Shown one piece after another: positions 289 to 42,448 of a stretch of 62,053 nt of DNA. The stretch covers positions 1 through 62,053 of the forward strand of contig CAZVEV010000001.1 in assembly GCA_964625865.1 (NCBI GenBank), read 5' to 3'. The position numbers and the translations under genes are program-made. Each line of letters starts with the position of its first letter. Within the stretch, counting starts at the first letter, position 1. The stretch comes from an uncultured Planctomycetaceae bacterium (GTDB lineage: Bacteria > Planctomycetota > Phycisphaerae > SM23-33). The notes under the pieces are model-generated. The model saw only the letters and a program-made list of their open reading frames with translations. It was not told the DNA's origin and ran no database searches.

Positions 289-3147
289 TTATCGATTCTG
301 CGAGTTCCCGGGCGCCTTTGCGGGGGCCAGGCCCAGCGAGGTCTGGATCGGGAAGTTGCAGATGCAGCCGGAGCTTGCTTCGGGAATCAGCACCATGCCT
401 CCGACGGGCAGGATGTTGATCCAGCAGCCCGGGCGCGTGGCGCGCGTCAGGGGTCCGTGCTTGCCCGAGGCCAGGTCGAACCGGTGGGGGGTGCGGTTCC
501 GGAAGAAGATCGTCGTCGCCGATGCGTTCAGCGCCCCGCACCCGCCGCGCCGCGATTTGACCCACGGCCAGGGCCACGCCGTGCGCTCGCCGGTGTCCAG
601 GGCGTAGGCGTAGGGCTCGATGTAGAGCGTCTTGCCGATGATCAACGGGTGCTGGTCCTGCTCGCCATGGATCGTTCCCGCCCGGATGTTCCGGTTGAAC
701 GACGTGGTCCACGCGACGGCGCCGGTGGCGGCGTCGAAAACGTGGACGTCATACCACAGCCTGCCCTTGAGGTTCCGCGAACCGGTCACCACGACCTTGC
801 CCTCGGTGGCCACCAGGTTCACGCTGTGCTCCAACTTCGCCAGGTCGCACGGCGCCCGCCAAAGCCGCTTGCCCGTCCCGAGATCCAGCGCTGTCACGAA
901 CGCGCCCTTGGCGAACAGGGGGGGCAGCTTGATTCGCCCGTCGGCGTCCTTCAGCGTCTCGGCGGCGGCGCTTTCGACGGCGAACACCTTCCCGTCGTCG
1001 ATGGCGATCGTGGGGTTCGGCACCATGCCGCTTCCGGCGTCGTAGGTCCATCGGGGCCGTCCGGGCCGTCCGGTCCGCACGTCCAGCGCGAACAGCCGCC
1101 TGCTGCAGACGAACGTCCCGTTGTCGTAGTAGCAGCCGTCTCGAAGGGTCGTGGCGCTCTGGGTGCGCCACGACGCCCCGGCCGGCGTCACACTGCCGAC
1201 CAGCACGCCGTCAACGGCGGCGAGGTAGCCCCACTCGCCTTTGACCTCGGCCGTCAGCGGCGGGGCCGTAAAGACCCGGCGCGGCTTGCCGGTTTGCGTG
1301 TCCAGCGCGAAGCACTTGTCGCCGGCGGCCACGTAGAGGCGGTCGCCGGCCAGCGCCATGTGACCGCTGTTGCGCAGGGCACCGACGCGAAGCGAGCCGG
1401 GGACCTCCCGTTCCCACAGCATCGTGCCGTTGCAGGCATCGAGGGCGAACACGCGGCCGGCGCCGGGTACGAACAGCCGTCCGGCCTGCCAGAGTGGCGA
1501 CATGACGCGGTGGTGGCGATCGACCATGTTCCGCGGTCCGGGGCGCCCGAACCACTGGAGAGCGAGCGGGCCGGAGGGTGTGGCGTCGCCGCTGCAGGCG
1601 GTGTTGCCCGGCGTGGCGTACATGTGCGACCACTGCCCGCCGCCGCCCGGCCCGCGACGCGCAACGCGCCCCGCGTCGGCGCCCTGGACGACGGCCCCGC
1701 CAAACGGGCGACAGACGCGCATGGCTTCGGCCTGTGCGGCGTCGGCGGGATCGTCCCAGATGACGAGATTGAACAGGCCGTCGGCGTAGGGCAGGGGGGC
1801 CGCCGAACGGTGAACCACCACGCGGCCGTACAGGCCTGCTGCGTCGATGGCGCTCCGTGCGGCGGCGGCCTTGGTGGGGTCGGATTCGACGCAGACGACC
1901 CGCAGCGTGGTCAGGCGGGCAAGTTCGCAGGCCAGCCCCACCGTGGCACCGGGACCGATCAACGCGTAGCCCTTCGTCGCGCCGGCCCGCGCGATGAGTC
2001 GTCGCGCGGCGTCGGTGGACCGCTTCGGGGCCGTGCGGTTGGTGTAGGGCAGCGGCTTCGGCGCCGGCGAGGCTTCGTCACCCGAGCCGGCCGGCCCCGG
2101 TGCGAAGCAGGTGACTATCCCCTTGTCCGTGCTGACCAGCAGCCGCCCGCCGGCAACAGCCAGCGAATACGCCTTGCCGTCCACCCCCGCCGACCAGGTT
2201 TCCTTCCCGTCAGCGCCACTGATCGCCGCGACCTTGCCCTCGCCCCCGCCGAACCGCATCTTGCCCGCGCCAATGAACGCATACGGATAGGCGGCGGGTA
2301 CCTTCATCGCCGCTACCGCAGGCCCCTTGCCCCGCCGCGCCAGCGAGGCGATGAAGCTCCCTCGCGTGTCGCGCCCGGTCTGGCCGTGCAAACGGTCGCC
2401 CCGTCGCGCCAGGTACCCCTGCATCGCTGCTCCCAGGCGTTTGCTCTCGATCTTCCGCCCCGTGCGGACATCCAGCGTTACCAGCTCGACGCCCCACGTC
2501 GGGAACATGCCCGCGCAGAAGTATGCCCGGTCGCCCTCGACCAGTACGCCGGTCCGCACCGGGTGGTCGCTGATGATCCGCCCGTTTCCCGCGATCCGCC
2601 GGTCGGGCCAGGCCGCGTGGCGATACGTCCACAGCAGGCGACCGGTCCGGCTGTTCAGGCAATACACGCGCCCGTCATCGGAGCCGAACAGCAGGCGATC
2701 GCCCGCCACCGTCGGCGCCAGGCGCACGGGCCCCTCGGTGAAGAATCGCCACACCTCGCGCCCGGTGACGGCGTCGAGGCAGGTGACCGTATCATCAGCC
2801 GACGAGCCGAAGTAGACCCGCGAGTCGGCGGCTACCAGGTGATACGCCCGGTCGTACGTCACACGCGGCTTGAGATTGCTCCGCCGGTGCCAGTAGTCGT
2901 GCCTCGCCGGTGCGGGCCAGGCCGCCTCCGGACGGTGGCGACAGCGATAGGTCCACTGCCGTTTCAGCGGCAGGGCGAGCGTCTCGGGCGTCAGGCCGGT
3001 CCGGGCGTTGTTCTGCATGTATGTGCCCCACCCCGCGACGGGGGGGGCGGCCTGCTGTTCCGCCTTCCCGTCGTCCGCACGGACTGCGGCCGAGGCGCAC
3101 GCGGCGACCAGAAGCACCGCCAGCGGTCTGCCCACCGTTCGTATCAT
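289..3147 (-). CDS. secreted PQQ/BamB-like beta-propeller repeat protein with an internal degenerate Rossmann/methyltransferase-like segment
   Basis: ORF 289-3174. ATG 3147 has AAGGAC upstream and gives signal peptide MIRTVGRPLAVLLVAACASAAVRA; 3174 is the alternative start. Repeated blades include VYFGSSADDTVTCLDAVTGREVWRF, RLLFGSDDGRVYCLNSRTGRLLW and RLYVAAGDKCFALDTQTGK. Internal segment GYALIGPGATVGLACEL..VVCVESD. C-terminal motif GCW..P.GG..L.P...GCIC. The antisense 965-aa ORF is R/G/P-rich junk. Confidence 0.8.
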   Translation of the reverse strand: MIRTVGRPLAVLLVAACASAAVRADDGKAEQQAAPPVAGWGTYMQNNARTGLTPETLALPLKRQWTYRCRHRPEAAWPAPARHDYWHRRSNLKPRVTYDRAYHLVAADSRVYFGSSADDTVTCLDAVTGREVWRFFTEGPVRLAPTVAGDRLLFGSDDGRVYCLNSRTGRLLWTYRHAAWPDRRIAGNGRIISDHPVRTGVLVEGDRAYFCAGMFPTWGVELVTLDVRTGRKIESKRLGAAMQGYLARRGDRLHGQTGRDTRGSFIASLARRGKGPAVAAMKVPAAYPYAFIGAGKMRFGGGEGKVAAISGADGKETWSAGVDGKAYSLAVAGGRLLVSTDKGIVTCFAPGPAGSGDEASPAPKPLPYTNRTAPKRSTDAARRLIARAGATKGYALIGPGATVGLACELARLTTLRVVCVESDPTKAAAARSAIDAAGLYGRVVVHRSAAPLPYADGLFNLVIWDDPADAAQAEAMRVCRPFGGAVVQGADAGRVARRGPGGGGQWSHMYATPGNTACSGDATPSGPLALQWFGRPGPRNMVDRHHRVMSPLWQAGRLFVPGAGRVFALDACNGTMLWEREVPGSLRVGALRNSGHMALAGDRLYVAAGDKCFALDTQTGKPRRVFTAPPLTAEVKGEWGYLAAVDGVLVGSVTPAGASWRTQSATTLRDGCYYDNGTFVCSRRLFALDVRTGRPGRPRWTYDAGSGMVPNPTIAIDDGKVFAVESAAAETLKDADGRIKLPPLFAKGAFVTALDLGTGKRLWRAPCDLAKLEHSVNLVATEGKVVVTGSRNLKGRLWYDVHVFDAATGAVAWTTSFNRNIRAGTIHGEQDQHPLIIGKTLYIEPYAYALDTGERTAWPWPWVKSRRGGCGALNASATTIFFRNRTPHRFDLASGKHGPLTRATRPGCWINILPVGGMVLIPEASSGCICNFPIQTSLGLAPAKAPGNSQNR

Positions 3148-3193
3148 GCTCGCGTCCTTATCATGGTTCGCCATCGCTGAGGCAAAGTGGCAG

Positions 3194-4633
3194 CTACAGG
3201 GTCCAGCCTGGCCTGTACTCGCGGCGGATGAGCTTGTTTGCCGCGGCTACATTGGTGACCTTCATCTCGCTGACGTCCCACTCGATCTTCCGGCCGGCCT
3301 GGAGGGCGACGTTGCCTAGCAGGACCATTTCGGTCAGCGGGCCGGCCCGGTCGAAGCTGGAGCAGGGCTGCTTCTTCGCCTGACACGCGGTGAGCCATTC
3401 CTGGATGTGGCGCGACCCGGTCTGCCAGCCGTACCGGTCCGCCACGGGCGGGATCTTCTTAAACGACTTGTTCACGGGCGTGATGTCGGCAAACTCGGGG
3501 ATTGTGCGCGGCCCGGCCTGCCCGGCGAGCGTGCCGGCCGTGATGCCTCCGAACGTCATCGCGCATTTCTCGCCGATGAAGATGCTCCCATTGCTGCCGA
3601 GCCCCCTGACGTTGGGGAAGCCCTTGGGCAGGGGAGGCTTTCGCCCGCCGTCGTACCAGGTGATCGTCACGGGCGGCGCCTCGCCCCGAGCGGGGAAACG
3701 GTAGCGAACGGTCGAGGCGGCCGGGTAGGTCCCCGCGCCGACGCCGGTCGACTCGGCTTCCACGGAAAACGACGTGGCCTCGGCCAGATGCATCGCCCAG
3801 AACGGCCCGTCCATCACGTGACAGCCCATCGCGCCCAGCGCCCCGGTGCCGAAGTCCACCCACCCCCGCCAGCGATACGGATGGTACGCCGGGCTATACC
3901 GCCGCTCGGGTGCCGGGCCCAGCCACAGGTCCCACGCCAGGTCCTCGGGCGTCGCGACGGGCTTGCCTGCCTTGACGTTCCCCTGCGGCCACACGGGGCG
4001 GTTCGTCCAGCAGTGGATGTCCCGGATCGGTCCGAGCCCGCCGCCCCAGACCATCTGGCAGGCGCGGCGGATAGTGGGCCCGGAATGGCGCTCGTTGCCC
4101 ATCTGCGTGACCACGCCCGTTTCGGCGGCGATCTTGACCAGTTGCCTGACCTCCCACACGTCGTGGGCCAGCGGCATCTCCGTGTAGACGTGTTTGCCTC
4201 GCCGCATCACCTCGGCGGTGATGACCGCATGCGTGTGGTCGGGCGTGGAGACCACCACCGCGTCGATGGACTTCTCCTTGTCGAGCATCTTGCGGAAGTC
4301 CTTGTACTTCGCGGCCTTCGGAAACCGCTTCATCGCGACGGCAGAGAGCGTCCAGTCCACGTCGCACAGCGCGACGACGTTGTGGCCGATGCACTTTTCG
4401 AGATTGGCCAGCCCGCACGCGCCCAGCCCGATGCCTGCGATGTTCAGCTTCTCGCCCGGGGGCGGCGGCGCGGGCTTGCCTTTCTTCTTCTTCCGCTTGG
4501 CACCCAGCACGCTGCTCGGGACGATCGTCAGGGCCGCTCCCGCGGCGCCCCGGCTGAGCAGTCGCCGCCTGGAGATCCGCCCGCCGCTTTCTGGTCGCTC
4601 TGCTCTTCGTTCAGACATGTTCTCGGTATCCAT
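3194..4633 (-). CDS. TAT-exported Gfo/Idh/MocA family oxidoreductase
   Basis: Twin-arginine signal ISRRRLLSRGAAGAALTIV. Rossmann motif LNIAGIGLGACG and the typical VVVSTPDHTHAVI..GKHVYTEMPL core. ATG 4631-4633 has AAGAGGG upstream and lies 1 nt after the TAA (4635-4637) of the preceding gene. The track start 4666 would overlap that gene. Confidence 0.85.
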   Translation of the reverse strand: MDTENMSERRAERPESGGRISRRRLLSRGAAGAALTIVPSSVLGAKRKKKKGKPAPPPPGEKLNIAGIGLGACGLANLEKCIGHNVVALCDVDWTLSAVAMKRFPKAAKYKDFRKMLDKEKSIDAVVVSTPDHTHAVITAEVMRRGKHVYTEMPLAHDVWEVRQLVKIAAETGVVTQMGNERHSGPTIRRACQMVWGGGLGPIRDIHCWTNRPVWPQGNVKAGKPVATPEDLAWDLWLGPAPERRYSPAYHPYRWRGWVDFGTGALGAMGCHVMDGPFWAMHLAEATSFSVEAESTGVGAGTYPAASTVRYRFPARGEAPPVTITWYDGGRKPPLPKGFPNVRGLGSNGSIFIGEKCAMTFGGITAGTLAGQAGPRTIPEFADITPVNKSFKKIPPVADRYGWQTGSRHIQEWLTACQAKKQPCSSFDRAGPLTEMVLLGNVALQAGRKIEWDVSEMKVTNVAAANKLIRREYRPGWTL

Positions 4634-4634
4634 G

Positions 4635-7600
4635 TTAACGACCCTCTTTCTCGCCCAGGCAGACAAGCGCCCCGTCCATCGTGGCCATGTACAGGCGTCC
4701 GCCGGCGGCGATCAGCCCGTCGAAGACCGGCACTCGCTGGGTCTTCAGTTCCGACAGCGTGCTCCCGTCGGCGGCTCGCATTACGCGAAGCACGGACCCT
4801 CTCCGCCCGGTCATCGCTTCGAACGCCCCCGCGTCGGGGGCAAGGTCCGGCGGGCCGGCGATGTAGAGATGCTTGCCCTGTCCTGAGCCTGTCGAAGGGC
4901 CTGCCCCGCCCTTCGTCGAGGCCCCGGCCAGCACCATCCCGTGGGCGCGAATCGGCACCCGCTCGGACCATATCGGAAGCTCCGTCCGCGAGAAGCCCCG
5001 TCCCTTCTCGCGCCCGATCTCGATCGGCCTCAGCGTCGAAATGGTCGTGTTGCGGTCGGCAAACAGTTCATATCCGTCGCCGGGCGTGAACTCCGGGCTG
5101 TGTCCCCTGCGGTGGCGGTAGACCTTCAGGCCGTACGTCGTGCTCTCGTCGAAGGCCAGGATCTGCCCGGACTTGGCGCCGAGGTAGTTGAAGTAGTACC
5201 CGGGCCAGCGCTGCCCGTACACCCAGTAGGTCCGGTTGAACCACGTCTTGTCCAGGAAGCCGTCGGTGGTCATCAGGTGCATGCCCACCATGCGGTCGCC
5301 CAGCTTGGTCACGCGTGTGGTCGGCTGGACCGTCAGATCGGCGTTGAACCGCATCTGGAACATGTAGATGTCTTCGGCCCCGGCGACGAGGATGTCCGTC
5401 TTCGTGCCGGTCATGTCAAACGGGCGCCCGGCGTCCTTCGAGGTGTCGGGCCTGGGACTGGCGAGGTGTCTCTCGTGAATCACCTTGCCCGTCGCCGGGT
5501 CCAGGGCGTAGGCGGTGATGCCGCCGTCGAGGTACGAGGACCGCCCGGCCGTGAAGTACACGGTGGCACGGGCATCTTGCCCGTGTTGTCCCTTTACGGG
5601 CGAGACGCCCCTGCTACGAACCAGCACGCTGCCGTGAACGGGCCAGGCCGACTCGAGCTGCCCGCGTATGCAGACTTGGCGCAGCTTCGGCGCGGCCCGG
5701 AAGCGCCACACCAGCGCCCCGTCCGAGGCCCGCAGGCAGTAGACGTGTCCGTCGGTGCACCCGAACAGGACCAGCGATCCGTGTATGGTGGGGGGCGAGT
5801 CCACGCGGGCCCCCGCGATGTAATGCCACAACCGCTTGCCGGTCCCGGCGTCGACGCAGTGGACGGTGTGGGCGTCCGGCTCGGCGACGAAGACCCTCCC
5901 GCCGGCCGCCACCGGCGGCGTCAGCGCGCCGTGGCGCTGCTCGGGACGGACGTATTGCAGGCTTGCGCTTGGGCCGCCGCCGGGCGGCTTGTCGGGGCCG
6001 ATGGCGACGGCCTTGACGTTCCCCAGACGCCTCTCCACCTGCTTGACGGGCCGAACGCTGACAGTGAGGGCCCCGGTCTTGGCCAGGTTGACCTGCCCGA
6101 CGCGAACCCACACGAAGTCCGTCCAGCCGTTGGTATGGCGGATGCGGCCGGTGAGTTTCGCTTCACCGACGGCCAACTCGAACACCGATCCACCGGGGCC
6201 CGCGTTGGACTGGCAGATCCAGACCGTCTGCCTGCCGGCCGTCTGGATCTTCGCTCGCCACGTGATATACGTGTCCTTGCCGCGCCAGGCGCTTATATGG
6301 TCGCCGCTCTTCTTCGCTCCGCTGCCGTGGACCGTCGCATCGGCTGCACGGAGAACGAGGTGGCTGACCTTGTCAGTCGGTTCCTTGGGCTCGGGTTTCC
6401 CACCAGTGGCGGCTGTCCCGATCAGCGCGGTTGTCCACAGGCTGGCCGGCTTGGCGGTCAGGGCGGCGGTCGTCGATCCGCTCCGCCGGGCGTCGTGACG
6501 GTACGTGGGCCAGTCGGATTGTCGATTGTCGATTGCCGACTGCCGATTGATCTTGCCGTACGCCGGGCCGCGCGTCAGCCGGTCGGTCTTGTCAGCCTTG
6601 GGGACATCGTCGCTCGCACGCATCTTTGCGCCCAGGGCGTTCAGGCCGGTCAGCATGACGCCGGGGTAGCAGAAGCACTGGTGGGGGGGCACGTAGAGCA
6701 GCCCGTTGGCCGGGATCACGCCGAAGCCGCACGCCCCGCGCATCCAGTTGTGCCTCATGTGGTTCCTGCTGACCAGGTCGAAGAACTCCACGCCACGCTT
6801 GTTCAGCAGGAGGTAACGCTTGGTCGCCTTGGGGGGATAGCAGCGAATGTGGTGGCCGGCCGTAACCAGCCGCTCGGCCGTCACCGTCCGCGTCACCTTG
6901 CCGGTCTTCGGGTCGTAGCCGTTGCGGGTCTCGGGATCCGGCTGCCACAGGAAGCTCCTGCCGTGCCCGCCGGCCCAGGCCCGCCAGAGGAGGCCCGAGG
7001 CCACGAACAGCCCCGGCGGGTTCCGCGCGTGGCCGCTGGCGTTGGGGCCCTTCCAGAGTTGCTTGCCCGTCTCGGCTGACACCGCCAGCGTCCCGCTGCC
7101 AGTCAGGTAGACTGCGCCATCGTGCATGACCACGTATCCGCGGGAGCCTCCCTTCGCTGCCGTCCGCCACAACTCCTTGCCGTCGGACAGCCTCAGGCAA
7201 ACCACCTCCTTGCCGTTGAAGTAGCACACCCGCCCGCCGCCGGCTACCAGCGTGTTGCTCGCGATGGACGTGGCCTTGGTCGCCCACAGGACCTTCCCGT
7301 CGGCCGCGTCGGCTGCCACCACGTGCTTGCCCGCCTGGCCGCCGGCGGGCTTGACCGTGGTGTTGAGTATCACCTTGCCCTCGCAGACCGCGATCTCGCT
7401 GACCGTGCCGGTGTCCTTGCAGGTGTGGAGCGTCTTGCCCGTTGCCGCGTCCAGGATGCACAGGGGGCCGCGCCCGTTCTGCGGGGCATACAGCCGGTCC
7501 CCGGCGGCTGTCAGGGCGTGGGGATGGCCCCTGTTCCAGGGCCGCTTCCAGAGCAGCACGCCGTTGAATGCGTCGCGCGCGATCAGCGTCCACAGCGCGG

Positions 7601-8270
7601 GCACGCCGCGCGGCTGGCCGATGATGCCCTCGTCGATGATGGCAAACATGCGCCCCTTGGCGGTGACCATGGCGTGGACGCTGGATGCGAACTCGTGGCT
7701 GCGACACCACAGGGGCGTGGCCTGCCATTGCAGACGCTCGGGCGGGCCCACGCGGTCATCATCGGCTACTGCGTTGTTGCCCGAGTCGTGGAGGTAATGG
7801 CTCCACTCGTCTATTTCGTCCGGCCAGGGCTTGACCGTCCGCGTCCACTTGTCGCCTTGTCGCCTGACAAGGACGCCCAGCGGGGCCAGGACCCGCATCA
7901 TCTCCTCGCGGGAGACGCCCGCGTCGCCCTCGACGACCAGGAGGTTCACCATGTCGGCTGACAGGGGCAGGTGCTTGCTTCGCCAGTGCTCGACCGACAC
8001 CTTGCCGTACACACCCAGCGAACGGATATGCTCCCGGGCCGCCGCGACCTTGGCCGCATCGCGCTCGAGCCCCCGCACGAGGTAGCGGTCGTTGGCGCGT
8101 AACGCCGCCGTCAACTTGCCATCCCCGCAGCCGACGTGTACCACCAGTCCGCCTTTGACGCCTGCGGCCTCAATGATCTTCGAGGCCTGGCCATCGGCCG
8201 CCTGCAGCGTCCCGGTCATCATCAGAAGTGAAGCCAGTACGCACACTGCTGCCAACCGTCGGAATATCAT
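4635..8270 (-). CDS. paralog A: signal peptide + SAM-methyltransferase-like domain + double PQQ-like beta-propeller, with a CBM-like insertion
   Basis: 1211-aa ORF. Signal peptide MIFRRLAAVCVLASLLMMTGTLQA. Motif I-like VVHVGCGDGKLT followed by LVRGLE. DEWSHYLHDSGNNAV. Blades such as GRVFVAEPDAHTVHCVDAGTGKRLWHY. 4-Cys motif HHIRC..RGACGFGVIPANGLLYVPPHQCFCY. AAAGGTG precedes ATG 8270. Confidence 0.85.
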   Translation of the reverse strand: MIFRRLAAVCVLASLLMMTGTLQAADGQASKIIEAAGVKGGLVVHVGCGDGKLTAALRANDRYLVRGLERDAAKVAAAREHIRSLGVYGKVSVEHWRSKHLPLSADMVNLLVVEGDAGVSREEMMRVLAPLGVLVRRQGDKWTRTVKPWPDEIDEWSHYLHDSGNNAVADDDRVGPPERLQWQATPLWCRSHEFASSVHAMVTAKGRMFAIIDEGIIGQPRGVPALWTLIARDAFNGVLLWKRPWNRGHPHALTAAGDRLYAPQNGRGPLCILDAATGKTLHTCKDTGTVSEIAVCEGKVILNTTVKPAGGQAGKHVVAADAADGKVLWATKATSIASNTLVAGGGRVCYFNGKEVVCLRLSDGKELWRTAAKGGSRGYVVMHDGAVYLTGSGTLAVSAETGKQLWKGPNASGHARNPPGLFVASGLLWRAWAGGHGRSFLWQPDPETRNGYDPKTGKVTRTVTAERLVTAGHHIRCYPPKATKRYLLLNKRGVEFFDLVSRNHMRHNWMRGACGFGVIPANGLLYVPPHQCFCYPGVMLTGLNALGAKMRASDDVPKADKTDRLTRGPAYGKINRQSAIDNRQSDWPTYRHDARRSGSTTAALTAKPASLWTTALIGTAATGGKPEPKEPTDKVSHLVLRAADATVHGSGAKKSGDHISAWRGKDTYITWRAKIQTAGRQTVWICQSNAGPGGSVFELAVGEAKLTGRIRHTNGWTDFVWVRVGQVNLAKTGALTVSVRPVKQVERRLGNVKAVAIGPDKPPGGGPSASLQYVRPEQRHGALTPPVAAGGRVFVAEPDAHTVHCVDAGTGKRLWHYIAGARVDSPPTIHGSLVLFGCTDGHVYCLRASDGALVWRFRAAPKLRQVCIRGQLESAWPVHGSVLVRSRGVSPVKGQHGQDARATVYFTAGRSSYLDGGITAYALDPATGKVIHERHLASPRPDTSKDAGRPFDMTGTKTDILVAGAEDIYMFQMRFNADLTVQPTTRVTKLGDRMVGMHLMTTDGFLDKTWFNRTYWVYGQRWPGYYFNYLGAKSGQILAFDESTTYGLKVYRHRRGHSPEFTPGDGYELFADRNTTISTLRPIEIGREKGRGFSRTELPIWSERVPIRAHGMVLAGASTKGGAGPSTGSGQGKHLYIAGPPDLAPDAGAFEAMTGRRGSVLRVMRAADGSTLSELKTQRVPVFDGLIAAGGRLYMATMDGALVCLGEKEGR
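6517..6551 (-). repeat. in-CDS heptanucleotide tandem repeat, paralog A (GATTGTC-type, 5 units)
   Basis: gattgtc gattgtc gattgcc gactgcc gattgat. Encodes KINRQSAIDNRQSDW. Confidence 0.9.
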
Positions 8271-8285
8271 CTCTGCACCTTTCTG

Positions 8286-11695: not shown

Positions 11696-11769
11696 GTAGG
11701 GCGTGCAACTGGTTTGCACGCGGAACGAACAGGCAATCCGTTCCGCGTGCAACGAGTTGCACGCCCTAC
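11696..11769. repeat. palindromic repeat family 1, copy 1 (GTAGGGCGTGCAAC...GTTGCACGCCCTAC)
   Basis: 74-bp nested palindrome. Each arm itself contains GTGCAAC..GTTGCAC. Located between paralogs B and C. Confidence 0.9.
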
Positions 11770-11804
11770 AACTACCGGGTGCGACAGTCCGCGACGGGTG
11801 GCGT

Positions 11805-15047: not shown

Positions 15048-15136
15048 AATCGACTCCTTGTCAGTTCAGTTCGTCGTCGGATCGAACGACACGCGCGGAG
15101 CAAGCTCCGCCGCTTCACATGGATGGGACGACAAGT

Positions 15137-18100
15137 TCAACCGCCGCCAAGGCAGACGATCTTCCCGTCGGTCGTCGCGATGACCAGTCGCCCGGCGGTG
15201 GCGATCAGGCCGTCGAACACCGGCGGGGCGGGCAGCGCGAGTTCGGCGAGTTTCGTTCCGTCTTCGGTAGACACCGCCCAAAGTACCGCGCCGCGTTTGC
15301 CTTCCATCGCCTCGACCTGGGCGGCCAGCGCCTTTTGCGTCTCAGCGTCGTTCATCTTCCGGTAGGCCTGCTCTTCGTCCACCAGGTCGGCGGGGCCGGC
15401 AAGGAACAGCGTCTTGTCCGCCACGACCATCGCCCGGGCCATCAGCGGCAGGTCGACCGTCCAGTTGTGCTTGACCTTGAAGCCCTTTACCGCCGGGCTG
15501 CTCCCGCCCGTACCGCCAAAGAACCTCATCGCCTTGCCGACCTTCCCCGCCACCGCGCGAGCGCCCACGACCTTGCCGTGATTGCCCCTCCCCGACGCGT
15601 CGCTCGCCTTGCCGTCGTCGAACGAGCAGGCGAGGACCAGGTGCGCGTCCTTGCCGGCCGCCTTGCCTCCCGCCGCGGCTGCGATCTCAGCGGCGCCCAG
15701 GGCCCGACGATACACGCGGACCTCGTCGATCAGCCCGGTCAGCGGCAGCGTGCTGTTGTAGCCGCCGACGGACGACTCGTCGTCCATGCCGATCTCCATG
15801 CCTTCCTGCGGGTCGCCCGTGATCAGGCCCGGGGCCTTGCCCGACCCGGCCGGCTTGCCGTCGACATGGACCAGCACCTTGCCTTCGGCCGTGAGCACGC
15901 CTGCGACGTGCGTCCATTTCCCGACGACCTTCGCCTTGGCCGCCGCGGCGTGGATCTTGCCGTTCAGCCGTATCGCGAATCGCGCCCGCCCGCCCTGGAG
16001 GTACAGCACGTAACCCATACCCGTCCCGCCTCGGGCCAGGATCACGCCGTCCGGCTTGTCGCTCTTGACCCACGCGGCGACCGTCACCGGCTTGCCCGCC
16101 GTGTTGAGGGCCTTGCTCTTGGCGATCTGGATCAGCGACCGCTTGGGCGTGCGGGTCGGCTTGCGGGGCACTGACGAGGGGGCGGCATCCGGTGACTTTG
16201 CGGCCGCGAACAGGTGATGCTCGATCGGTGTGGTCCAGCGGTAGTACTTGGGCTTGCGTCCGAAGCCGTAGATCTGCTGGTCGTCGACGACGAGAATCCG
16301 CCCGGCCGGGGCGGCCGTGCCGCTGCGGTAATATCCCTGCCACCCGCTGACGAACATGCTGCCCCACATCCAGTACGTGCGATGCCACCACGTGTCGTCG
16401 AGGAAGCCTGTGGGGCTGAACAGGTGGGTATACTCCTTGGTCTGCGTCGGCGGCGGGGCGCCCTGGTCAGCGTCCTTTCCGCGGGGGAAGGGCTTGAGCG
16501 GCAATCGCTTGCCGTCGAATCCGAACGGCTGGGACCGCATGTAGACGAACTTCTCGTCGGCCGACAGCACGTCGGGCAGGCCCACGGGCATGTTCAGCCA
16601 ACTGACGTAGTCCTGCAGGCTCTTGCCCGCCTCGGTGTCCTTCTCGTCCAGGACGGTGCAGGACAGGACGGCCCCCGTGGCGGGCCTCAGCCGCCACAGG
16701 CGCAGGCCCGTGTCGAGGAACATCGAGCGCCCGGCGACGCAGTAGAGCACGTCGTCGCGGATCAGCACGCTGCCGTGGACGGGCCAGACGCTTTCGACCT
16801 GGCCGAACGAGACGGTTCGCTGGTCCATCGGCGCCGCGCGGAACCGCCACGCCAACTCGCCGTCGGCCACGCGCACGCTGTAGACCCATCCGTCGGCTGA
16901 GCCGAAGAAGGCGTGCCCGTTGTGGATGGTCGGCGGCGAGTCGACCCGCCCGCCGGCCCGGAACCGCCACCGCAGCTTGCCGGTCTCGGCGTCAACCGCA
17001 CAGACGGTGTGGTCGTCGATCGACGCGACGAAGACCATGCCCGCCGCCATCACCGGAGCTGACAGCTTCTTGCCCAAAACGCCCGTCGACCAGGCTGGCT
17101 TGAGCTGTGCGGGCACCTTCGTGGTCGACTTCCCCGTGCGGGCGTTGTCGTGACGATACGTCGGCCAGTCATTCGATTTACGATTGTAGATTTTAGATTT
17201 TAGATTGATCGTGCCATACGCGGGGCCCTTATCGAGGCGCGGGACCTTCGACCTTCGACCTTCGACCTTCGACGCCGGTGCGAGCGCATTAAAGCCGGAG
17301 AGCTTGGCTTCGAGGTAGCAGGCGCAGGGGTGCTGCGGGGCGTAGAGCAGGCCGTTGGCCGGGAGCACGCCGTATCCGCACGCGCCGCGGACCCAGTGGT
17401 TCACGTCCCAGGTCTTGTTGCGGACGTCGATGAACTCCGTGCCCGTGCGGGCCATCAGGAGGTACCGGTCGGTGGCCTTGCCGCGATAGCAGCGGTGGTG
17501 GAACCAGTAGATCTCGACGTCGGGTGGGAACTGGCGCACGACCTTGCCTGTCCGCGGGTCGCGCCCGGTAAACACGCCGACGGCCCGCCCGCTGGTGGTC
17601 TCGCCCGTCCAGACCAGTCCGTCGACGACCAGCAGGTCCTCCGACGAGCGGTAGCCCGACGGCGGGTGATACGCCGACCAGAGCACCTTGCCCGTCTTGC
17701 CCGACAGCGCCGTCATCGTGTCTTTGCCCTTGGTGTACCACGAGCCGGTCTGCATGCCCGCCGTCTCGCCGCCGGAGAACAGGACCACGTCCTCGTAGAG
17801 GACCAGGATGGGCCCGTAGAAGGCCTTGATCTCCTTGGCCCGCGCGATCGGGTCCGATCGCCAGGCCTGCTTGCCCGTCTTGCGGTCGAGGCTGACAACG
17901 CACTGCCCGTCGTGGAGCACCACGCGCCCGGAGTCGGCGGCCAGCGTCATCGGGAGGACCTTGGTCTTGACCGACCAGAGGGTCTTGCCTGTGTCCGCCT
18001 TGACCGCGACGATCTGCCTCTCGGCCTCGTCCCAGAACTTCGAACCGTATCCGCCGCGCGGCGGGGTGTACTCGGCGGTGTTGACCAGCGCGAAGAGGAC

Positions 18101-19012
18101 GCCGTCAGACAGGAGCATCTCCTCGGCGACCTTGGTCTGCTCGTACGTGCGCACGGTCTTGCCCGTCGCCGCATCGAGCGCCACGACCGGCCCGTCGATG
18201 CTCAGCGTGACGTATACGCGGTCGCCGGAGGCGATCAGGCGGCGCGGCAACTGGGCCGGGCCGCTCTTGAGCGGCCAGAGGTGCGTGTGCCACTTGCCCA
18301 TCTCCCGCTTCCACAGCACCACGCCGTTAAACGCGTCGCGGGCGACCACCGTCCATCGCGGCGCGGCCAGTATCGACGTGGGCGTCGCTTCGTCGAAGAT
18401 CGTAAAGACGCGTCCGCCGGCGGTGACGGCCGCGCTGAGGCTCGTCATGCGGTCGTGGTGGCGCGAGTACCTCGGCCCGCTGACCCACTGCATCCGGCGC
18501 GGCGGGCCGGCGACCGTGTCGCGGGCGACCGCGTTGTTGGTCGGGCTGTGCAGGAAGTGCGTCCACTCGTCGATCTCCTTCGGGCGCGGCTTGACGGTCT
18601 TGGTTCCGCCGATAAGCGCCACGCCGTTGGGCGCCAGGACGCGCATGACCTCGGCCATCGGCACCGAACCGAGGTCATCGCTGACGACCAGGTTGACCAG
18701 GTTGTCCACGTAGGGCAGGCGCGCGCCGTCGAACGTATCGACGGAGACCTTGCCGTACAGCCCCCTCGCCGCCACGTGCTTCCGTGCGGCGGCGACGTTT
18801 CGCGCGTCGGTATCAAGCCCATGAACGAGCAGGTTGTCCGCCGCGCGCAGGGCGGCGGTCAACTTCCCGTCGCCGCACCCGACGTGCACGATCAGTCCGC
18901 CGGTGACACCCGCAGTCTTGAGGATATCGTTCGCGCTCGCCGCGCGGGCGGGCGGGGTGAGGGTTACGATGATCGCCATCCCCGCAAGGATGGTGGCGCA
19001 TGTCCGTGTCAT
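15137..19012 (-). CDS. paralog D: signal peptide + SAM-methyltransferase-like domain + double PQQ-like beta-propeller, with a LamG/concanavalin-like insertion
   Basis: 1291-aa ORF. MTRTCATILAGMAIIVTLTPPARA signal. IVHVGCGDGKLT..LVHGLD. HHRCY..RGACGYGVLPANGLLYAPQHPCACY. LamG-like block VTVAAWVKSDKPDGVILARGG..YVLYLQGGRARFAI..WTHVAGV..LIDEVRVYRRAL. AAGGAG SD before ATG 19012. Confidence 0.85.
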   Translation of the reverse strand: MTRTCATILAGMAIIVTLTPPARAASANDILKTAGVTGGLIVHVGCGDGKLTAALRAADNLLVHGLDTDARNVAAARKHVAARGLYGKVSVDTFDGARLPYVDNLVNLVVSDDLGSVPMAEVMRVLAPNGVALIGGTKTVKPRPKEIDEWTHFLHSPTNNAVARDTVAGPPRRMQWVSGPRYSRHHDRMTSLSAAVTAGGRVFTIFDEATPTSILAAPRWTVVARDAFNGVVLWKREMGKWHTHLWPLKSGPAQLPRRLIASGDRVYVTLSIDGPVVALDAATGKTVRTYEQTKVAEEMLLSDGVLFALVNTAEYTPPRGGYGSKFWDEAERQIVAVKADTGKTLWSVKTKVLPMTLAADSGRVVLHDGQCVVSLDRKTGKQAWRSDPIARAKEIKAFYGPILVLYEDVVLFSGGETAGMQTGSWYTKGKDTMTALSGKTGKVLWSAYHPPSGYRSSEDLLVVDGLVWTGETTSGRAVGVFTGRDPRTGKVVRQFPPDVEIYWFHHRCYRGKATDRYLLMARTGTEFIDVRNKTWDVNHWVRGACGYGVLPANGLLYAPQHPCACYLEAKLSGFNALAPASKVEGRRSKVPRLDKGPAYGTINLKSKIYNRKSNDWPTYRHDNARTGKSTTKVPAQLKPAWSTGVLGKKLSAPVMAAGMVFVASIDDHTVCAVDAETGKLRWRFRAGGRVDSPPTIHNGHAFFGSADGWVYSVRVADGELAWRFRAAPMDQRTVSFGQVESVWPVHGSVLIRDDVLYCVAGRSMFLDTGLRLWRLRPATGAVLSCTVLDEKDTEAGKSLQDYVSWLNMPVGLPDVLSADEKFVYMRSQPFGFDGKRLPLKPFPRGKDADQGAPPPTQTKEYTHLFSPTGFLDDTWWHRTYWMWGSMFVSGWQGYYRSGTAAPAGRILVVDDQQIYGFGRKPKYYRWTTPIEHHLFAAAKSPDAAPSSVPRKPTRTPKRSLIQIAKSKALNTAGKPVTVAAWVKSDKPDGVILARGGTGMGYVLYLQGGRARFAIRLNGKIHAAAAKAKVVGKWTHVAGVLTAEGKVLVHVDGKPAGSGKAPGLITGDPQEGMEIGMDDESSVGGYNSTLPLTGLIDEVRVYRRALGAAEIAAAAGGKAAGKDAHLVLACSFDDGKASDASGRGNHGKVVGARAVAGKVGKAMRFFGGTGGSSPAVKGFKVKHNWTVDLPLMARAMVVADKTLFLAGPADLVDEEQAYRKMNDAETQKALAAQVEAMEGKRGAVLWAVSTEDGTKLAELALPAPPVFDGLIATAGRLVIATTDGKIVCLGGG
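17172..17206 (-). repeat. in-CDS heptanucleotide tandem repeat, paralog D (TTAGATT-type, 5 units)
   Basis: ttcgatt tacgatt gtagatt ttagatt ttagatt. Encodes INLKSKIYNRKSN. Confidence 0.9.
17243..17270 (-). repeat. in-CDS heptanucleotide tandem repeat, paralog D (GACCTTC, 4 perfect units)
   Basis: gaccttc x4. Encodes SKVEGRRSKV. Confidence 0.9.
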
Positions 19013-19075
19013 AGTCGACTCCTTATCAGTTCAGTTCGTTGTCGGACCGAACGACGAACGCGGGGCGTTGCCCCG

Positions 19076-19137
19076 CCGCTAAACGTTGTGTGCGGTAGAG
19101 CAGCGCCATGCCGCGCGGGTGCGCCACTGTTTAGCGG
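19076..19137. repeat. repeat family 2 termini in inverted order (CCGCTAAAC ... GTTTAGCGG)
   Basis: CCGCTAAAC at 19076-19084 (preceded by the GCGGGGCGTTGCCCCGC hairpin) and GTTTAGCGG at 19129-19137. Confidence 0.6.
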
Positions 19138-19143
19138 TTGGGC

Positions 19144-19172
19144 AATCCCGATGTACATCGGGACTCACTCTT
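19144..19172. repeat. repeat family 3, copy 2
   Basis: AATCCCGATGTACATCGGGACTCACTCT. Confidence 0.8.
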
Positions 19173-19208
19173 CATCTGCGCAGTGCGTTCGTCATCGAAG
19201 CACGAGGT

Positions 19209-22200
19209 CTACTTCGCACCGCCCATGCACGTGACCTTGCCGTCGGTCGTTACGATGTAGATCCGCCCGGCGGCGGCGATCAGTCCGTCGAACACCGGCG
19301 GGGCGGTGAGTTTCATCTCGGACACCATCTTACCGTCGCCGGCCGCGTGGACGCGCAGCACGGCGCCCTTGCGCCCCTCGAAGGCGCCCATCGGATCTTT
19401 CGGGTCCAGGACGTCCGGCGGGCCGGCGATCACCAGGTGCTTGCCCGCCAGCGTCATCGCGCGAATGCGGACCGGGACCCACTTGAACCACGCCGGCGGG
19501 GCCTTCCGCGTAAAGCCGATGCCCTTGGGCACGCCTCGCGTGTAGTCCGGAAGCACCGGGTCGTTGTCATTGGCGTCGGCGAACAGGAGGTAGCCTTCCT
19601 TGCCCGGCGTGAACAGGGGGCTCTGCAGGTTCCTGTACGGGAAGGCCTGCACGGCGTACGTCCTGTCCGGACCGACGACGAGCAGTTGTCCCGTCTTGGC
19701 GCCGTAGTTGGCGATGTGGAAACCGGGCCAGGTTGGCGAGTACATCCAGAACGTCCTGTTGTACCACGAGTCGTCGAGGAACCCGCCGGTGGCGAAGATG
19801 TGGCGGCCCATCGTCCGCTCGCCCATACTGCTTGCGCCATACTTCTTCTTGTGCTCCGCCGTCATCTTCGGCCACACGCGAGCCTGCCAGTTCCTCTGGA
19901 CCACCTCGTCCTTCTTCTGTGTCTGCACCCTCAACGCATAGGGCTTGTCCAGCAGGTCCTCCATGCCCATCGCGTCGGGATTCTTTTCATCCTTGAGCAG
20001 CGGGTAGGGGACGTCTTCCTGCTTCAGGGCCAGGTCGAGTTGATACTGACCCAGGTAGATCTTCCCGCCTTCGCTTACCAGCACGTCCGACGTGGCGCCC
20101 TCGATGTGATAGCTCGGGATGAACGGCTTGTCCTTGGCGTCCTGGCGCGTGTGGGCCCACGTGTCCAGGCGCGTCTGGGCCACGATCTTGCCCGTGGCCG
20201 GATCGAGTGCAAAGACGTAGATCCCGCCGTCGAGGAACGTCGATCGCCCGGCCGTGCAGTAGGCCACGCCCTCAGTCACAAGAACGCTGCCGTGCACGCG
20301 CCAGGGCGATTCCAACTGGCCGAACGCGACGATTCGCCGTTCCCGCGGCGCCGCGCGGAACCGCCACGCCAGCGCGCCGTCGGCGGCACGGAGGCAGTAA
20401 ACGTATCCGTCCGCACTGCCGAACAGGACGCGCCCGCCGTCGATGGTCGGGGGCGAGTCGATCCGCCCGCCTGCCGTGAACTGCCACACCCCCTTGCCGC
20501 TTCGCACATCCAACGCATACAGCGTGTGGGCGTCCCTGGCGGCCACGTACACCCGCCCCCCGGCGGCTACCGGAGGCGTGAGGCGACCCTTGAGTTCCAC
20601 CGTCCACTGTGCGGCCAACTTGGCCGGCACCTCGCACGTCGCCGCGCCGCTGCGCCGAGCGTCCCGGCGGTACGTGGGCCAATCCGATTTCGGATTTCGG
20701 ATTTCGGATTTCGGATTCTTCGCTCCGTACGCGGGTCCCTTTTCGAGGCGCGAGACCTTCGACCTTTGACCTTCGACCTTCGACGGGTCCTTCCCTGTCA
20801 GCGCCTGGAAGCCGGTCAGCTTCACGCCGGGGTAGCAGAAGCACGGGTCCGGCGGGACGTAGAGCAGGCCGTTGCCCGGCATCACGCCGTACTTGCAGGC
20901 CCCGCGCGTCCAGTCGTGCTGGGAGTTCTTCTGGCCGGTCAGGCTCACGAACTCCACGCCGCGACACGGCGTGATGACGTACTTCTCGGTGGCCTTGCTC
21001 TGGTAGCACCGCGGGTGGTGGCCCGGGGTGAACACGTCGGCGGCGCTGACCTTCTCGCCCGCCTTGCCGGTGGCCAGGTCGATGCTCGCCATCCCACTGC
21101 CGCTTCGCTGCCAGATCTTGCCCTGTGCGACGAACGGCTCGGCGCCGAGCCTGCCCTTGGCCGTCCACAGCGTCTTGCCCGTCTTGACGTCCACCGCCGT
21201 CATCCCTCCGGGGCCGTTGAACAGCACGCGGTCGCCGCAGGCCAGCACGAGCCCCGCCGGTGCGCCCCGCCGCCTCTTGGGCTTCTTCGCGCCGGGCTTC
21301 CTGGGCGCCGGCTCGGGCTTCTTGACCGGAGCCGGGGCCGCGGTCTTCCACAATTCCTTGCCCGTCTTGAGGTCGAGGCACGTGACGGCCTGCCCGGCCT
21401 GGTAGAAGGCCCTGCCGTCCTGGGCCGCCAACGACAGGGCGTTGAGGGCGGCGGTCTTGACCCAGAGTTTGCGGGCGGTCTTGGCGTCAAAGGCCATCAC
21501 CACGTTGGCGCCTTTGCGGACCAGGACCACGCCGTCGCAGCAGCGAAGTTCCTGGGCCCCGTCGGAGCCCTCGCAGGTGGCGAGCACCTTGCCCGTCGCC
21601 GCGTCGAGAATCGACACCGGCGCGGTGTAGCCCAGCGTGACCATCAGGCGGTCGCCTTCGGCCACGATGCGCCGCGGAACCGTCGGCGGGATGCTCCGCA
21701 GGGCCTTGCTTCGCCACTGGCTGGTGCCCCACTGCTTGAGCGGGCGCTCCCACAGGAGCACGCCGTTAAACGCGTCCCGCGCGGTCAGCACCCATCGCTC
21801 GGGCAGGGGCCCGTCGGTGATGCCGGTCTTGCCCTGGTCGGCGATGTAGAACACGCGCCCGCCGGCGGAGATCATGGCGACGAGGCTGGAGTTGAACTCG
21901 TGGCTGCGCGACCACAGGGGCCCGCAGGTCCACCGCAGTCCGCGCGGCGGGGCGATCCGCGTGTCGGACGCCACCGCGTTGTTCGACGCGTCGTGGAGGA
22001 AGTGCGACCAGTCGTCAATGTCGCCCGGGTGCGGCTTGACGGTCTTGACGCCGCCGATGTACGCTGCGCCCTCCGGCGCCAGGACGCGCATGACCTCGGC
22101 CATCGGCACCGCGCCGAGGTCGTCGGCCACCAGGAGATTGACCAGGTCGTCGGCGTACGGCAGGGCCTTGCCCGCCAACCGGTCAACCGACACCTTGCCG

Positions 22201-22460
22201 TACACGCCGAGCGACTGAATGGTCTTGCGGGCCTTGGCGACGTTCGCGGCTTCGGTATCCAGGCCGTGGACCAGGAATGCGTCGGTCGCTCGCAGGGCCG
22301 CCGTCAGCTTGCCGTCTCCACAGCCGAGATGCACCACCAGCCCGCCCTTGACGCCCGTGGCGTCGAGGATGCTCTTTGCGTCCGCGGCCCGGGCGGCCGG
22401 CGCTACGCTCAGCACGATCACCAATCCAGCCAATACCGTATGCTCAATCCACTTTGTCAT
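19209..22460 (-). CDS. paralog E: signal peptide + SAM-methyltransferase-like domain + double PQQ-like beta-propeller
   Basis: ORF 19209-22493. ATG 22458-22460 has AAGGAG 7 nt upstream and gives MTKWIEHTVLAGLVIVLSVAPAARA. VVHLGCGDGKLT..LVHGLD. DDWSHFLHDASNNAV. HHPRCY..RGACKYGVMPGNGLLYVPPDPCFCY. The antisense 1232-aa ORF is R/G/P-rich. Confidence 0.85.
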   Translation of the reverse strand: MTKWIEHTVLAGLVIVLSVAPAARAADAKSILDATGVKGGLVVHLGCGDGKLTAALRATDAFLVHGLDTEAANVAKARKTIQSLGVYGKVSVDRLAGKALPYADDLVNLLVADDLGAVPMAEVMRVLAPEGAAYIGGVKTVKPHPGDIDDWSHFLHDASNNAVASDTRIAPPRGLRWTCGPLWSRSHEFNSSLVAMISAGGRVFYIADQGKTGITDGPLPERWVLTARDAFNGVLLWERPLKQWGTSQWRSKALRSIPPTVPRRIVAEGDRLMVTLGYTAPVSILDAATGKVLATCEGSDGAQELRCCDGVVLVRKGANVVMAFDAKTARKLWVKTAALNALSLAAQDGRAFYQAGQAVTCLDLKTGKELWKTAAPAPVKKPEPAPRKPGAKKPKRRRGAPAGLVLACGDRVLFNGPGGMTAVDVKTGKTLWTAKGRLGAEPFVAQGKIWQRSGSGMASIDLATGKAGEKVSAADVFTPGHHPRCYQSKATEKYVITPCRGVEFVSLTGQKNSQHDWTRGACKYGVMPGNGLLYVPPDPCFCYPGVKLTGFQALTGKDPSKVEGQRSKVSRLEKGPAYGAKNPKSEIRNPKSDWPTYRRDARRSGAATCEVPAKLAAQWTVELKGRLTPPVAAGGRVYVAARDAHTLYALDVRSGKGVWQFTAGGRIDSPPTIDGGRVLFGSADGYVYCLRAADGALAWRFRAAPRERRIVAFGQLESPWRVHGSVLVTEGVAYCTAGRSTFLDGGIYVFALDPATGKIVAQTRLDTWAHTRQDAKDKPFIPSYHIEGATSDVLVSEGGKIYLGQYQLDLALKQEDVPYPLLKDEKNPDAMGMEDLLDKPYALRVQTQKKDEVVQRNWQARVWPKMTAEHKKKYGASSMGERTMGRHIFATGGFLDDSWYNRTFWMYSPTWPGFHIANYGAKTGQLLVVGPDRTYAVQAFPYRNLQSPLFTPGKEGYLLFADANDNDPVLPDYTRGVPKGIGFTRKAPPAWFKWVPVRIRAMTLAGKHLVIAGPPDVLDPKDPMGAFEGRKGAVLRVHAAGDGKMVSEMKLTAPPVFDGLIAAAGRIYIVTTDGKVTCMGGAK
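20684..20718 (-). repeat. in-CDS heptanucleotide tandem repeat, paralog E (CGGATTT-type, 5 units)
   Basis: ccgattt cggattt cggattt cggattt cggattc. Encodes KNPKSEIRNPKSD. Confidence 0.9.
20754..20781 (-). repeat. in-CDS heptanucleotide tandem repeat, paralog E (GACCTTC-type, 4 units)
   Basis: gaccttc gaccttt gaccttc gaccttc. Encodes SKVEGQRSKV. Confidence 0.9.
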
Positions 22461-22584
22461 GGTCGGCTCCTTGTCGCGGACTATCGTGTGCACAAGAGCA
22501 TACCGTATTGCCCCCCCCGAATGCCACGCGACATCGCAGAGGGCTCCATAGAGACGATGGCAAGGCGGCCAGGAGGGCGGCTAA

Positions 22585-42442: not shown

Positions 42443-42448
42443 AACCTG

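Follow-up and report, generated by a model that had tools for sequence, protein, structure and literature searches.

Can a methyltransferase core that is joined to two beta-propellers still be a methyltransferase once it has left the cytoplasm? The question was raised by a gene array of an uncultured Planctomycetaceae bacterium (assembly GCA_964625865.1, contig CAZVEV010000001.1), studied here in a stretch of 62,053 nucleotides (nt) that is called the window throughout. On the minus strand of 289-22493, six long open reading frames (ORFs) and one of 479 amino acids (aa) were found where an earlier annotation made from the letters alone (hereafter the sequence-only reading) had placed them. The six encode paralogs of 952-1291 aa, named A to F, which span 289-22460 (Table 1). 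For A to E, a signal peptide, a methyltransferase segment, a first propeller, a four-cysteine (4-Cys) motif, a linker and a second propeller had been proposed, an architecture borne out by the ORFs, by Pfam and by a structural model. Our results point to an answer that is still tentative: the methyltransferase core may have become a ligand pocket or wedge within a larger propeller protein, and would no longer act as a methyltransferase.

A truncated methyltransferase core

The N-terminal segment of A to E had been read as a methyltransferase homologue, and the Pfam check agreed. Methyltransf_25 (curated cutoff 27 bits) was matched above its cutoff by C (43.8 bits), D (38.6) and E (31.8), at residues ~41-131, and just short of it by A (25.2) and B (25.1); matches to Methyltransf_25, Methyltransf_11 and Methyltransf_31 lay at residues ~41-135 of A to E. 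No Pfam methyltransferase match was obtained for F. PQQ_2 was found in all six proteins (E 1e-30 to 1e-40; 1e-35 in paralog E). The translations displayed signal-like N-termini, VVHVGCGDGKLT, LVHGLD, DEWTHYLH..NNAV, the 4-Cys motif and a low-complexity linker, and the motifs picked out earlier (VVHVGCGDG, LVHGLD, DEWTHYLH..NNAV and 4-Cys) are real and conserved family-wide.

Paralog C was modelled at full length with AlphaFold2 (AF2) on 78 family sequences, with a predicted local distance difference test (pLDDT) of 89.3 and a predicted template modelling score (pTM) of 0.92; the high pTM suggests that the modules of C pack as one rigid body. Modelled alone, its N-terminal domain reached pLDDT 86. 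The alpha/beta domain comprises strands 39-44, 61-67, 89-93, 106-111 and 126-134, a hairpin at 137-140 and a single N-terminal helix. Foldseek matched the N-terminal domain to TleD, SpnL, MMP1179, RebM, SpnF, MitM and AtmM (E 5e-9 to 1e-6), with a root mean square deviation of ~2.2 A over ~116 residues, 24-29% identity, and template modelling scores of 0.65 for the query (TMq) and 0.35-0.46 for the targets (TMt). The sequence matches of the core in the PDB (SpnL, SpnF and 3dlc) were consistent with these structural matches.

The fold is less complete than the "intact-looking" one of the sequence-only reading. Only the SAM (S-adenosylmethionine)-binding core of ~116 residues is present, covering 35-46% of the matched methyltransferases; the models lack the N-terminal cap and the substrate region of strands 6/7, and with them the complete seven-stranded fold. 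The domain is a real class I methyltransferase core, of which only the cofactor-binding half is kept. With class I methyltransferases of the Methyltransf_11/25 group (TleD 5gm1/5gm2, SpnL 7v6h, RebM 3bus, AtmM 6uv6, MMP1179 3dlc) it has in common the Rossmann-like strands 1-5, the GxGxG loop, acidic residues after strands 2 and 3, the LP(Y/F)xD loop and RvLxPGG. Unlike these enzymes, the array proteins have a cleavable Sec-type signal, ~40% of a normal methyltransferase and a covalent link to two propellers, and their family displays His for Asp/Glu before the glycine loop and Asn for Asp in strand 4.

Conservation of the SAM signature was assessed in 218 non-identical sequences of the A-E type, as percentages of gap-free rows. 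The glycine loop was highly conserved (G45 94%, C46 94%, G47 90%, G49 96%), as were D67 at the ribose-binding position (89%) and D/E92 at the adenine-binding position (92%); position 94 was almost always Phe, Leu or Trp. The motif pattern of class I methyltransferases (GxGxG, an acidic residue after strand 2 and another after strand 3) is thereby present in the A-E type. A few members of this type have lost the glycine loop, for example P0068 of Thermostilla marina (VVLEAESVES). Since the fold tolerates loss of the signature, the fact that the A-E type keeps it speaks for selection on the binding of an adenosine-containing ligand, beyond folding, and the pocket of this type probably still binds such a molecule, as far as residue conservation can tell. 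Conversely, the F type and some A-E members are without the SAM loop, so that a function common to the whole superfamily would be independent of an adenosyl ligand.

Connector, propellers and linker

The connector that leads from the methyltransferase core to propeller 1 was modelled with pLDDT ~95 in full-length C and <55 without the propeller. Confident modelling only alongside the propeller we take to mean that the connector belongs to the predicted interface between both modules. Spacing of the four cysteines is identical across A to F. The linkers of A to E have a core, RLEKGPAYG, in which R591, L592, P596 and A597 are each kept by at least 90% of the family, and after it a variable tail rich in Ser, Ile and Lys, which is expanded in B.

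By sequence, the propellers matched only generic blade repeats. By structure, the best Foldseek match of the propeller of C was tetrathionate hydrolase (6l8a/7cqy, E 4e-18, TMt ~0.6, 14% identity), followed by BamB and quinoprotein dehydrogenases. These last matches raise the possibility that the array encodes dehydrogenases dependent on pyrroloquinoline quinone (PQQ), which would also account for the weak PQQ repeat matches (PF01011; TIGR03075 35-58 bits) and the structural likeness to quinoprotein alcohol dehydrogenases. We consider this very improbable: the curated cutoffs are 480 bits for TIGR03075 and 833 bits for TIGR03074, similarity is limited to the generic blade repeats, and designed repeat proteins and BamB outscore any dehydrogenase.

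Predicted export of the array proteins

Signal peptides had been announced for the array proteins, and all six, together with ~70 of the 78 aligned relatives, indeed display a Lys/Arg n-region, a hydrophobic core of 10-15 residues and an AxA-type site ~10 residues before strand 1. In E the signal reads MTKWIEHTVLAGLVIVLSVAPAARA, followed by AD; in C it is MTRTLSAVLAGLAIVVTLAPHAHA, followed by AS. A possible lipobox (LVAAC) occurs in F, the only array member with one. A 19-residue hydropathy scan of the six proteins recovered the N-terminal signal as the only membrane-like segment.

The sequence-only reading had kept the option that the hydrophobic N-terminus is an uncleaved anchor, holding the methyltransferase domain in the SAM-containing cytoplasm. 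All that speaks for it is that enzymes using SAM are generally expected in the cytoplasm, and we find it hardly credible. The positive n-region, the short hydrophobic region and the AxA site correspond to an N-in orientation, no further hydrophobic segment lies between core and propellers, and in the model of C the modules form a single packed unit (pTM 0.92). The F-type module has a propeller on either side; with one signal and no transmembrane segment, it would have to share their exported compartment. PQQ_2-type propellers suit an exported protein, and the four invariant cysteines likewise count for export. On these grounds the cytoplasmic anchor was rejected, and we strongly infer from the sequence features that the whole protein, methyltransferase-like module included, is exported via Sec.

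Export of the family by the twin-arginine (Tat) route was also considered and rejected: an RR pair occurs in only ~10 of ~70 N-termini, most of which have short Lys/Arg n-regions. A twin-arginine signal (SRRRLLSRGAAGAAL, Tat motif SRRRLLS) is displayed by the oxidoreductase at 3194-4633, in contrast to the Sec-type signals of the array proteins. The distinction matters for the cofactor. The Tat system has been proposed to carry bound nucleotide cofactor to the periplasm for BT2158/Gfo-type enzymes (PMC8121099). Since the signals of the array proteins are of Sec type, a bound cofactor cannot leave with the folded protein.

Paralog F and the permuted subfamily

F had been described as a rearranged protein with a degenerate Rossmann-like segment, which agrees with its permuted alignment, its LIGPGATVG loop and the missing Pfam methyltransferase match. 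Residues 372-942 of F align with residues 19-590 of A to E, and residues 40-240 with the start of propeller 2; its internal module matched the hidden Markov model of the family N-terminal domain with E 2e-18 (59.6 bits). F belongs to a conserved subfamily with 1460 matches. The best 120 of these 1460 have a median length of ~1180 aa (1178) and most carry LamG; among the matches listed, the methyltransferase-like module starts near residue 600, between both propellers. The plan of the F type is signal, (LamG), propeller-2-like part, internal methyltransferase-like module and propeller 1 with the four cysteines, F itself being without LamG.

In this subfamily G45, G47 and G49 are kept in ~40-60%, D92 is replaced by His in 77% and D67 by Glu in 61%; about half of the F type, F included, is without the GxGxG loop and its acidic residues. 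Both types have in common LPYxDxxxN, E121, R124, P128, G130, W150, H152, N159, D165 and the four cysteines. Among homologues of F, P0204 has one signal ahead of a BNR_2 sialidase-like part, LamG and the F-type plan, and is apparently a genuine fusion. A second candidate, a xylose-isomerase-like TIM-barrel joined to an F-type protein (P0227, 1531 aa), was discarded: a second signal peptide (MAKQMLIGLFLLLTTPVTG) appears near residue 385, so that it is probably a merged gene call reflecting adjacency. The N-terminus of P0227 displays a Tat signal on the TIM-barrel part. Pairing of F-type with A-E-type genes was not recurrent in the fetched loci, and the few "internal" methyltransferase positions there look like over-extended ORF starts.

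With the conserved signature of A to E and the eroded one of F at hand, the main rival of an absorbed core can be weighed. The array proteins could be true extracytoplasmic SAM-dependent methyltransferases, in which SAM would be bound in the periplasm or at the surface, connector and propeller 1 would replace the cap, and methyl groups would pass to a small molecule or to a polymer that has itself been exported (glycan, protein or lipid head group), F being an inactive pseudoenzyme partner. This reading accounts for canonical adenosyl/SAM positions conserved at 89% or more in the 218 A-E-type sequences, and for the invariant polar residues K141, D148, W150, H152, N160 and D165 right after the core. 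The nearest relatives by sequence and structure are active small-molecule and sugar methyltransferases (TleD, RebM/AtmM, MitM), and an eroded F stands in one operon with intact paralogs, a situation that we take to resemble known enzyme/pseudoenzyme pairs. Yet neither a periplasmic SAM pool nor a SAM exporter of bacteria was found in the literature searched, and we know of none. Sec signals exclude co-export of bound cofactor, no transporter or S-adenosylhomocysteine-recycling gene was conserved nearby in 80 loci, neither a cap nor a strand 6/7 region is present, and some full-length members are altogether without the glycine loop. We therefore regard extracytoplasmic methyl transfer as unlikely. 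In its wider form, the A-E type would be working periplasmic or surface methyltransferases of planctomycetes, verrucomicrobia and their relatives, with the propellers as acceptor-binding cap and the F type as inactive partners. This would call for a hitherto unrecognised source of SAM outside the cytoplasm, and glycans or envelope components would be methylated after export in a way that forms a new class. We rate the idea as rather improbable.

Family size, divergence and annotation

Of the candidates scored for C, more than 6500 were matches. Taken by itself, the N-terminal module was matched at E<=1e-30 by 552 clusters (50% identity), and in the best 150 of these 552 it almost always begins at residue 20-50. 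The family occurs in at least 578 species genomes, mostly of Planctomycetota, Verrucomicrobiota and relatives (Pirellulales, Planctomycetaceae, Phycisphaerae, Brocadiaceae, Verrucomicrobiota, Kiritimatiellia, Victivallales, Armatimonadota and a few Anaerolineales). The locus bearing an identical C is present on several metagenome contigs.

Pairwise identities within the array were 56% for C-D, 49% for B-D, 46% for B-C, 42% for C-E and 35-44% for A against the others. Over residues 24-172, identity to C rose to 73% for D, 64% for B, 61% for E and 58% for A, so that the earlier estimate by eye of two thirds between the N-termini of C and D was about right. Orthologues of C and of D in other organisms are 72-74% identical (72% for D). 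Since C and D are closer to these outside orthologues than to each other, the paralogs are old, which upholds the claim of an old, maintained family; DNA copies within the array are 60-80% alike. Recent amplification and gene conversion were ruled out by the same orthologues and by the absence of long near-identical stretches of DNA.

Members A to E share a signal peptide, an H-x-G-C-G-D-G core, DEWTHYLH..NNAV, a propeller 1 with HHRC..C..CxC, the RLEKGPAYG linker and propeller 2, a combination that forms a family without a curated name. In the source records they are named only "PQQ-binding-like beta-propeller repeat protein" or "BamB family protein", and both labels fall below their own curated cutoffs: scores were 60-84 bits for TIGR03300 (equivalog cutoff 285) and 45-74 bits for NF008351 (cutoff 423), and remained under the TIGR03075 threshold given above. 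In the literature searched, no study described this architecture and none addressed its function. The nearest remark concerns Tuwongella immobilis, where 28 "BamB" paralogs of 43-193 kDa were recorded, five of them detected by mass spectrometry (PMC8567305). For PDB entries 9m2c/j/k ("PQQ-binding-like beta-propeller repeat protein"), no paper was traced.

These names suggest another reading, in which the array proteins would be BamB-like scaffolds, propeller platforms on which proteins meet during envelope biogenesis or within large surface complexes, with the methyltransferase-like module as an inert relic. BamB models are indeed the best family-level matches, BamB structures rank among the top Foldseek matches, the Tuwongella paralogs carry the same name, and the F type does without the SAM loop. 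With BamB (YfgL) and the PQQ_2 family, the array proteins have in common blade repeats, an eight-blade-type fold and exported location. But scores lie far under the equivalog cutoffs, and BamB is a ~380-aa single-propeller lipoprotein, whereas the array proteins (950-1290 aa) are three times its size, with two propellers, a methyltransferase-like core and mostly non-lipoprotein signals. Their many invariant charged, His and Cys residues are typical of an active or ligand site, and an inert relic leaves the adenosyl signature of the A-E type unexplained. A scaffold of this kind appears distinctly improbable to us.

The sequence-only reading had rated the array as the strongest candidate for an undescribed system in the window. 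This stands insofar as no characterised function was found in the databases and literature searched; it does not stand insofar as thousands of members are already catalogued under generic BamB or PQQ names. Folds are known and the family is catalogued; what is new is the exported fusion of a methyltransferase core with propellers, together with its permuted sister type.

Gene neighbourhood

ORFs of 80 loci from other species were clustered to survey the surroundings of the family. Tandem family copies occurred in 23 of 77 loci, with up to six in a row. Sulfatases were present in 15 of the 80 related loci and Tat-signalled Gfo/Idh/MocA genes in 9-13. Since both families are very abundant in these phyla, they were not counted as a conserved system and are regarded as weak hints. 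Short ORFs (~270-565 aa) that cluster with the family and are without the methyltransferase-like module were observed near members in ~15 of the 80 loci.

Within the array, the Tat oxidoreductase is separated from A by ~1 nt and from F by <50 nt, a tight arrangement suggesting that A, the oxidoreductase and F share one transcript. The suggested link to the array is tight at this locus but recurs in only 9-13 of the 80 related loci. Its best NCBIfam match was BT_2158_fam, a glycoside 3-dehydrogenase (425.6 bits over nearly the full length; equivalog cutoff 750).

Several observations hint at a glycan: LamG insertions in D and in F-type members, the BNR_2 sialidase-like fusion P0204, the BT_2158-like Tat dehydrogenase embedded in the operon, the Tat-signalled TIM-barrel gene that lies next to an F-type gene or is merged with it (P0227), GH53 and SASA esterase genes 9-10 kb off, and the sulfatases counted above.

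Known systems compared

SpnF and SpnL, among the closest sequence and structure matches of the array core, are cyclases that use the methyltransferase fold for other chemistry (PDB title of 4pne). They are a precedent for such a change of use, although, unlike the array proteins, they are cytoplasmic, full-length methyltransferase folds of secondary metabolism without propellers. That an exported PQQ-like propeller can be an enzyme is shown by tetrathionate hydrolase of Acidithiobacillus ferrooxidans (6l8a, 7cqy), which needs no cofactor; it has a single propeller and neither methyltransferase module nor 4-Cys motif, at the low identity given above.

Like the embedded oxidoreductase, the BT2158-type pathway of Bacteroides thetaiotaomicron (BT2156-BT2160) has a Tat-signalled enzyme. 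BT2158 was proposed to be periplasmic, with co-exported NAD(P) (PMC8121099). Its likeness to the oxidoreductase of the array is limited by the score mentioned above; in addition, the array has no DUF1080 hydrolase or IolE-like gene, and association with the propeller family is not conserved.

Eukaryotes offer likenesses at the level of description. In the TYW4/LCMT2 kelch fusion and in METTL1-WDR4, a methyltransferase is combined with a substrate-presenting propeller. Plant Golgi pectin and xylan methyltransferases use SAM outside the cytosol, supplied by dedicated SAM transporters; in contrast to these lumenal enzymes, no SAM transporter is evident near the array.

Proposed function

The reading that we favour, tentatively, remains that of an absorbed core. 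A class I methyltransferase core, cut to its cofactor-binding half, would be fixed in one rigid body with two propellers, and the invariant connector would tie it to propeller 1, which bears His/Arg/Asp clusters and the four invariant cysteines. The module would no longer be a free-standing methyltransferase and would serve as ligand pocket or structural wedge, a pocket that in the A-E type probably still holds an adenosine-containing molecule. The proteins would be soluble, periplasmic or at the surface, after export by Sec. As a whole, each would most likely recognise or process a polymer outside the cytoplasm, for which a glycan is the most plausible candidate; specificity would be diversified by tandem paralogs and lectin-like inserts (LamG). 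Tetrathionate hydrolase as the best propeller match counts in favour of this view. Architecture, homology, conservation and distribution were observed here; identity of the ligand, a glycan as substrate and any catalysis are inferred.

Several points weigh against an absorbed core. Conservation of the adenosyl signature in the A-E type, at 90% or above, is exactly as expected of an active SAM enzyme. Outside tandem copies, no conserved neighbour was found in the 80 loci, and the frequencies of sulfatase and Gfo/Idh/MocA genes may be near background given their abundance in these phyla. The glycan link is circumstantial.

Locus layout and other features of the window

Third-position GC content (GC3) of the array ORFs was 0.83-0.90, matching the remainder of the window, whose GC content is 66-70%. 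For B, the longest ORF reaches 11762, 67 codons upstream of the signal-peptide Met at 11561; this start is backed by alignment of the signal peptide with those of the paralogs. Public gene calls differ on starts (B 1091 vs 1100 aa, D 1291 vs 1280, F 952 vs 909). A LamG insertion had been predicted and was recognised in D as Laminin_G_3; it also marks an orthologous group of ~1300 aa. The "CBM-like" insert of A fared less well, with only a sub-threshold DUF5077 match, and a PDB sequence search with residues 651-758 returned no match. A scan of 1-20000 for promoters and terminators gave chance level only. Positions of the features are collected in Table 1.

Table 1. Coordinates of the array genes and of their modules in the window, with the modules of the A-E plan given for C.
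Feature	Position	Strand	Characteristics
Paralog F	289-3147 (ORF to 3174)	-	952 aa, permuted: signal, propeller-2-like part, degenerate methyltransferase-like module, propeller 1 with 4 Cys
Internal degenerate methyltransferase-like module of F, residues 381-523	1579-2007	-	LIGPGATVG for HVGCGDG; D92 replaced by H
Tat-signal Gfo/Idh/MocA oxidoreductase	3194-4633	-	GFO_IDH_MocA and GFO_IDH_MocA_C2 (Pfam)
Paralog A	4635-8270	-	1211 aa; most divergent among A-E; extra ~110-aa insert ahead of propeller 2
Insert of A, residues 651-758	5997-6320	-	possibly a beta-sandwich module; DUF5077 21.3 bits, cutoff 24.6
Paralog B	8286-11561	-	1091 aa
Paralog C	11805-15047	-	1080 aa; protein chosen for modelling
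Propeller 2 of C, residues ~613-1080	11808-13211	-	PQQ_2 best stretch 637-798; model
Inter-propeller linker of C, residues ~581-612	13212-13307	-	pLDDT 67-73; RLEKGPAYG core conserved
Propeller 1 of C, residues ~171-580	13308-14537	-	PQQ_2/BamB-type; invariant RHHD and WFHHRC clusters
4-Cys motif region of C, H504 H505 R506 C507 ... C544 ... C562-x-C564	13347-13538	-	four Cys invariant in 78 sequences
Connector of C from methyltransferase core to propeller 1, K141..D148-x-W150-T-H152-Y-L-H..N-N160-A-V..D165, residues 141-170	14538-14627	-	invariant or >=90% in 218 sequences
Truncated class I methyltransferase core of C, residues 25-140	14628-14975	-	strands 1-5 and hairpin, GCGDG loop, D67, D92
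Sec-type signal peptide of C, residues 1-24	14976-15047	-	n-h-c layout, AxA site
Signal helix of C, residues 2-17			AF2 model
Paralog D	15137-19012	-	1291 aa; E-like plan with LamG insertion in propeller 2
Laminin_G_3 (concanavalin-like lectin) insertion of D, residues 970-1111	15680-16105	-	Pfam 74.2 bits, E 1.6e-20
Paralog E	19209-22460 (ORF to 22493)	-	1083 aa; signal peptide, methyltransferase-like core, propeller 1 with 4 Cys, linker, propeller 2

A small minus-strand ORF (1-265), read from 265 and cut by the left edge of the window after at least 88 codons, had been named as a possible part of the system; no relation to the array was detectable, and the matching 81-aa gene call on a JGI contig was without Pfam match. 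Beyond the window, downstream of F, the stretch L085 13164-18178 encodes HicB and HicA as a pair, an ECF sigma factor, and two further proteins: one of 641 aa that resembles FecR and one of 632 aa that weakly matches PEMT, a membrane methyltransferase. As far as seen, the small ORF, HicAB and the ECF sigma/FecR genes are unlinked to the array.

Elsewhere in the window, a separate 428-aa propeller protein with PQQ_2 only is encoded at 29959-31245 on the minus strand, beside genes for a GH53 galactanase, a SASA-type carbohydrate esterase and MltA (neighbouring genes at 28368-29567, 31316-32416 and 32522-33601). ORFs at 22781-24046 (+), 24398-24973 (+), 25243-26928 (+), 35050-35949 (-) and 46323-48440 (-) matched no Pfam family (E<=1e-3 or 1e-4) yet looked coding, with GC3 of 0.83-0.87. 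Region 41094-59044 holds ordinary genes: PhoH, a 7TM-HD receptor, fumarase, malic enzyme, TrpB/TrpA, AccA, a sulfatase (56252-57700) and DUF481.

Significance

The family, often present in several copies per genome, is one of the larger uncharacterised exported families in bacteria that are the dominant agents of polysaccharide turnover in oceans, soils and wastewater. It also poses a cofactor paradox, since a Sec-exported methyltransferase core with a kept signature means either extracytoplasmic methyl transfer or a pocket repurposed for a new ligand. Either outcome would correct thousands of BamB and PQQ annotations.

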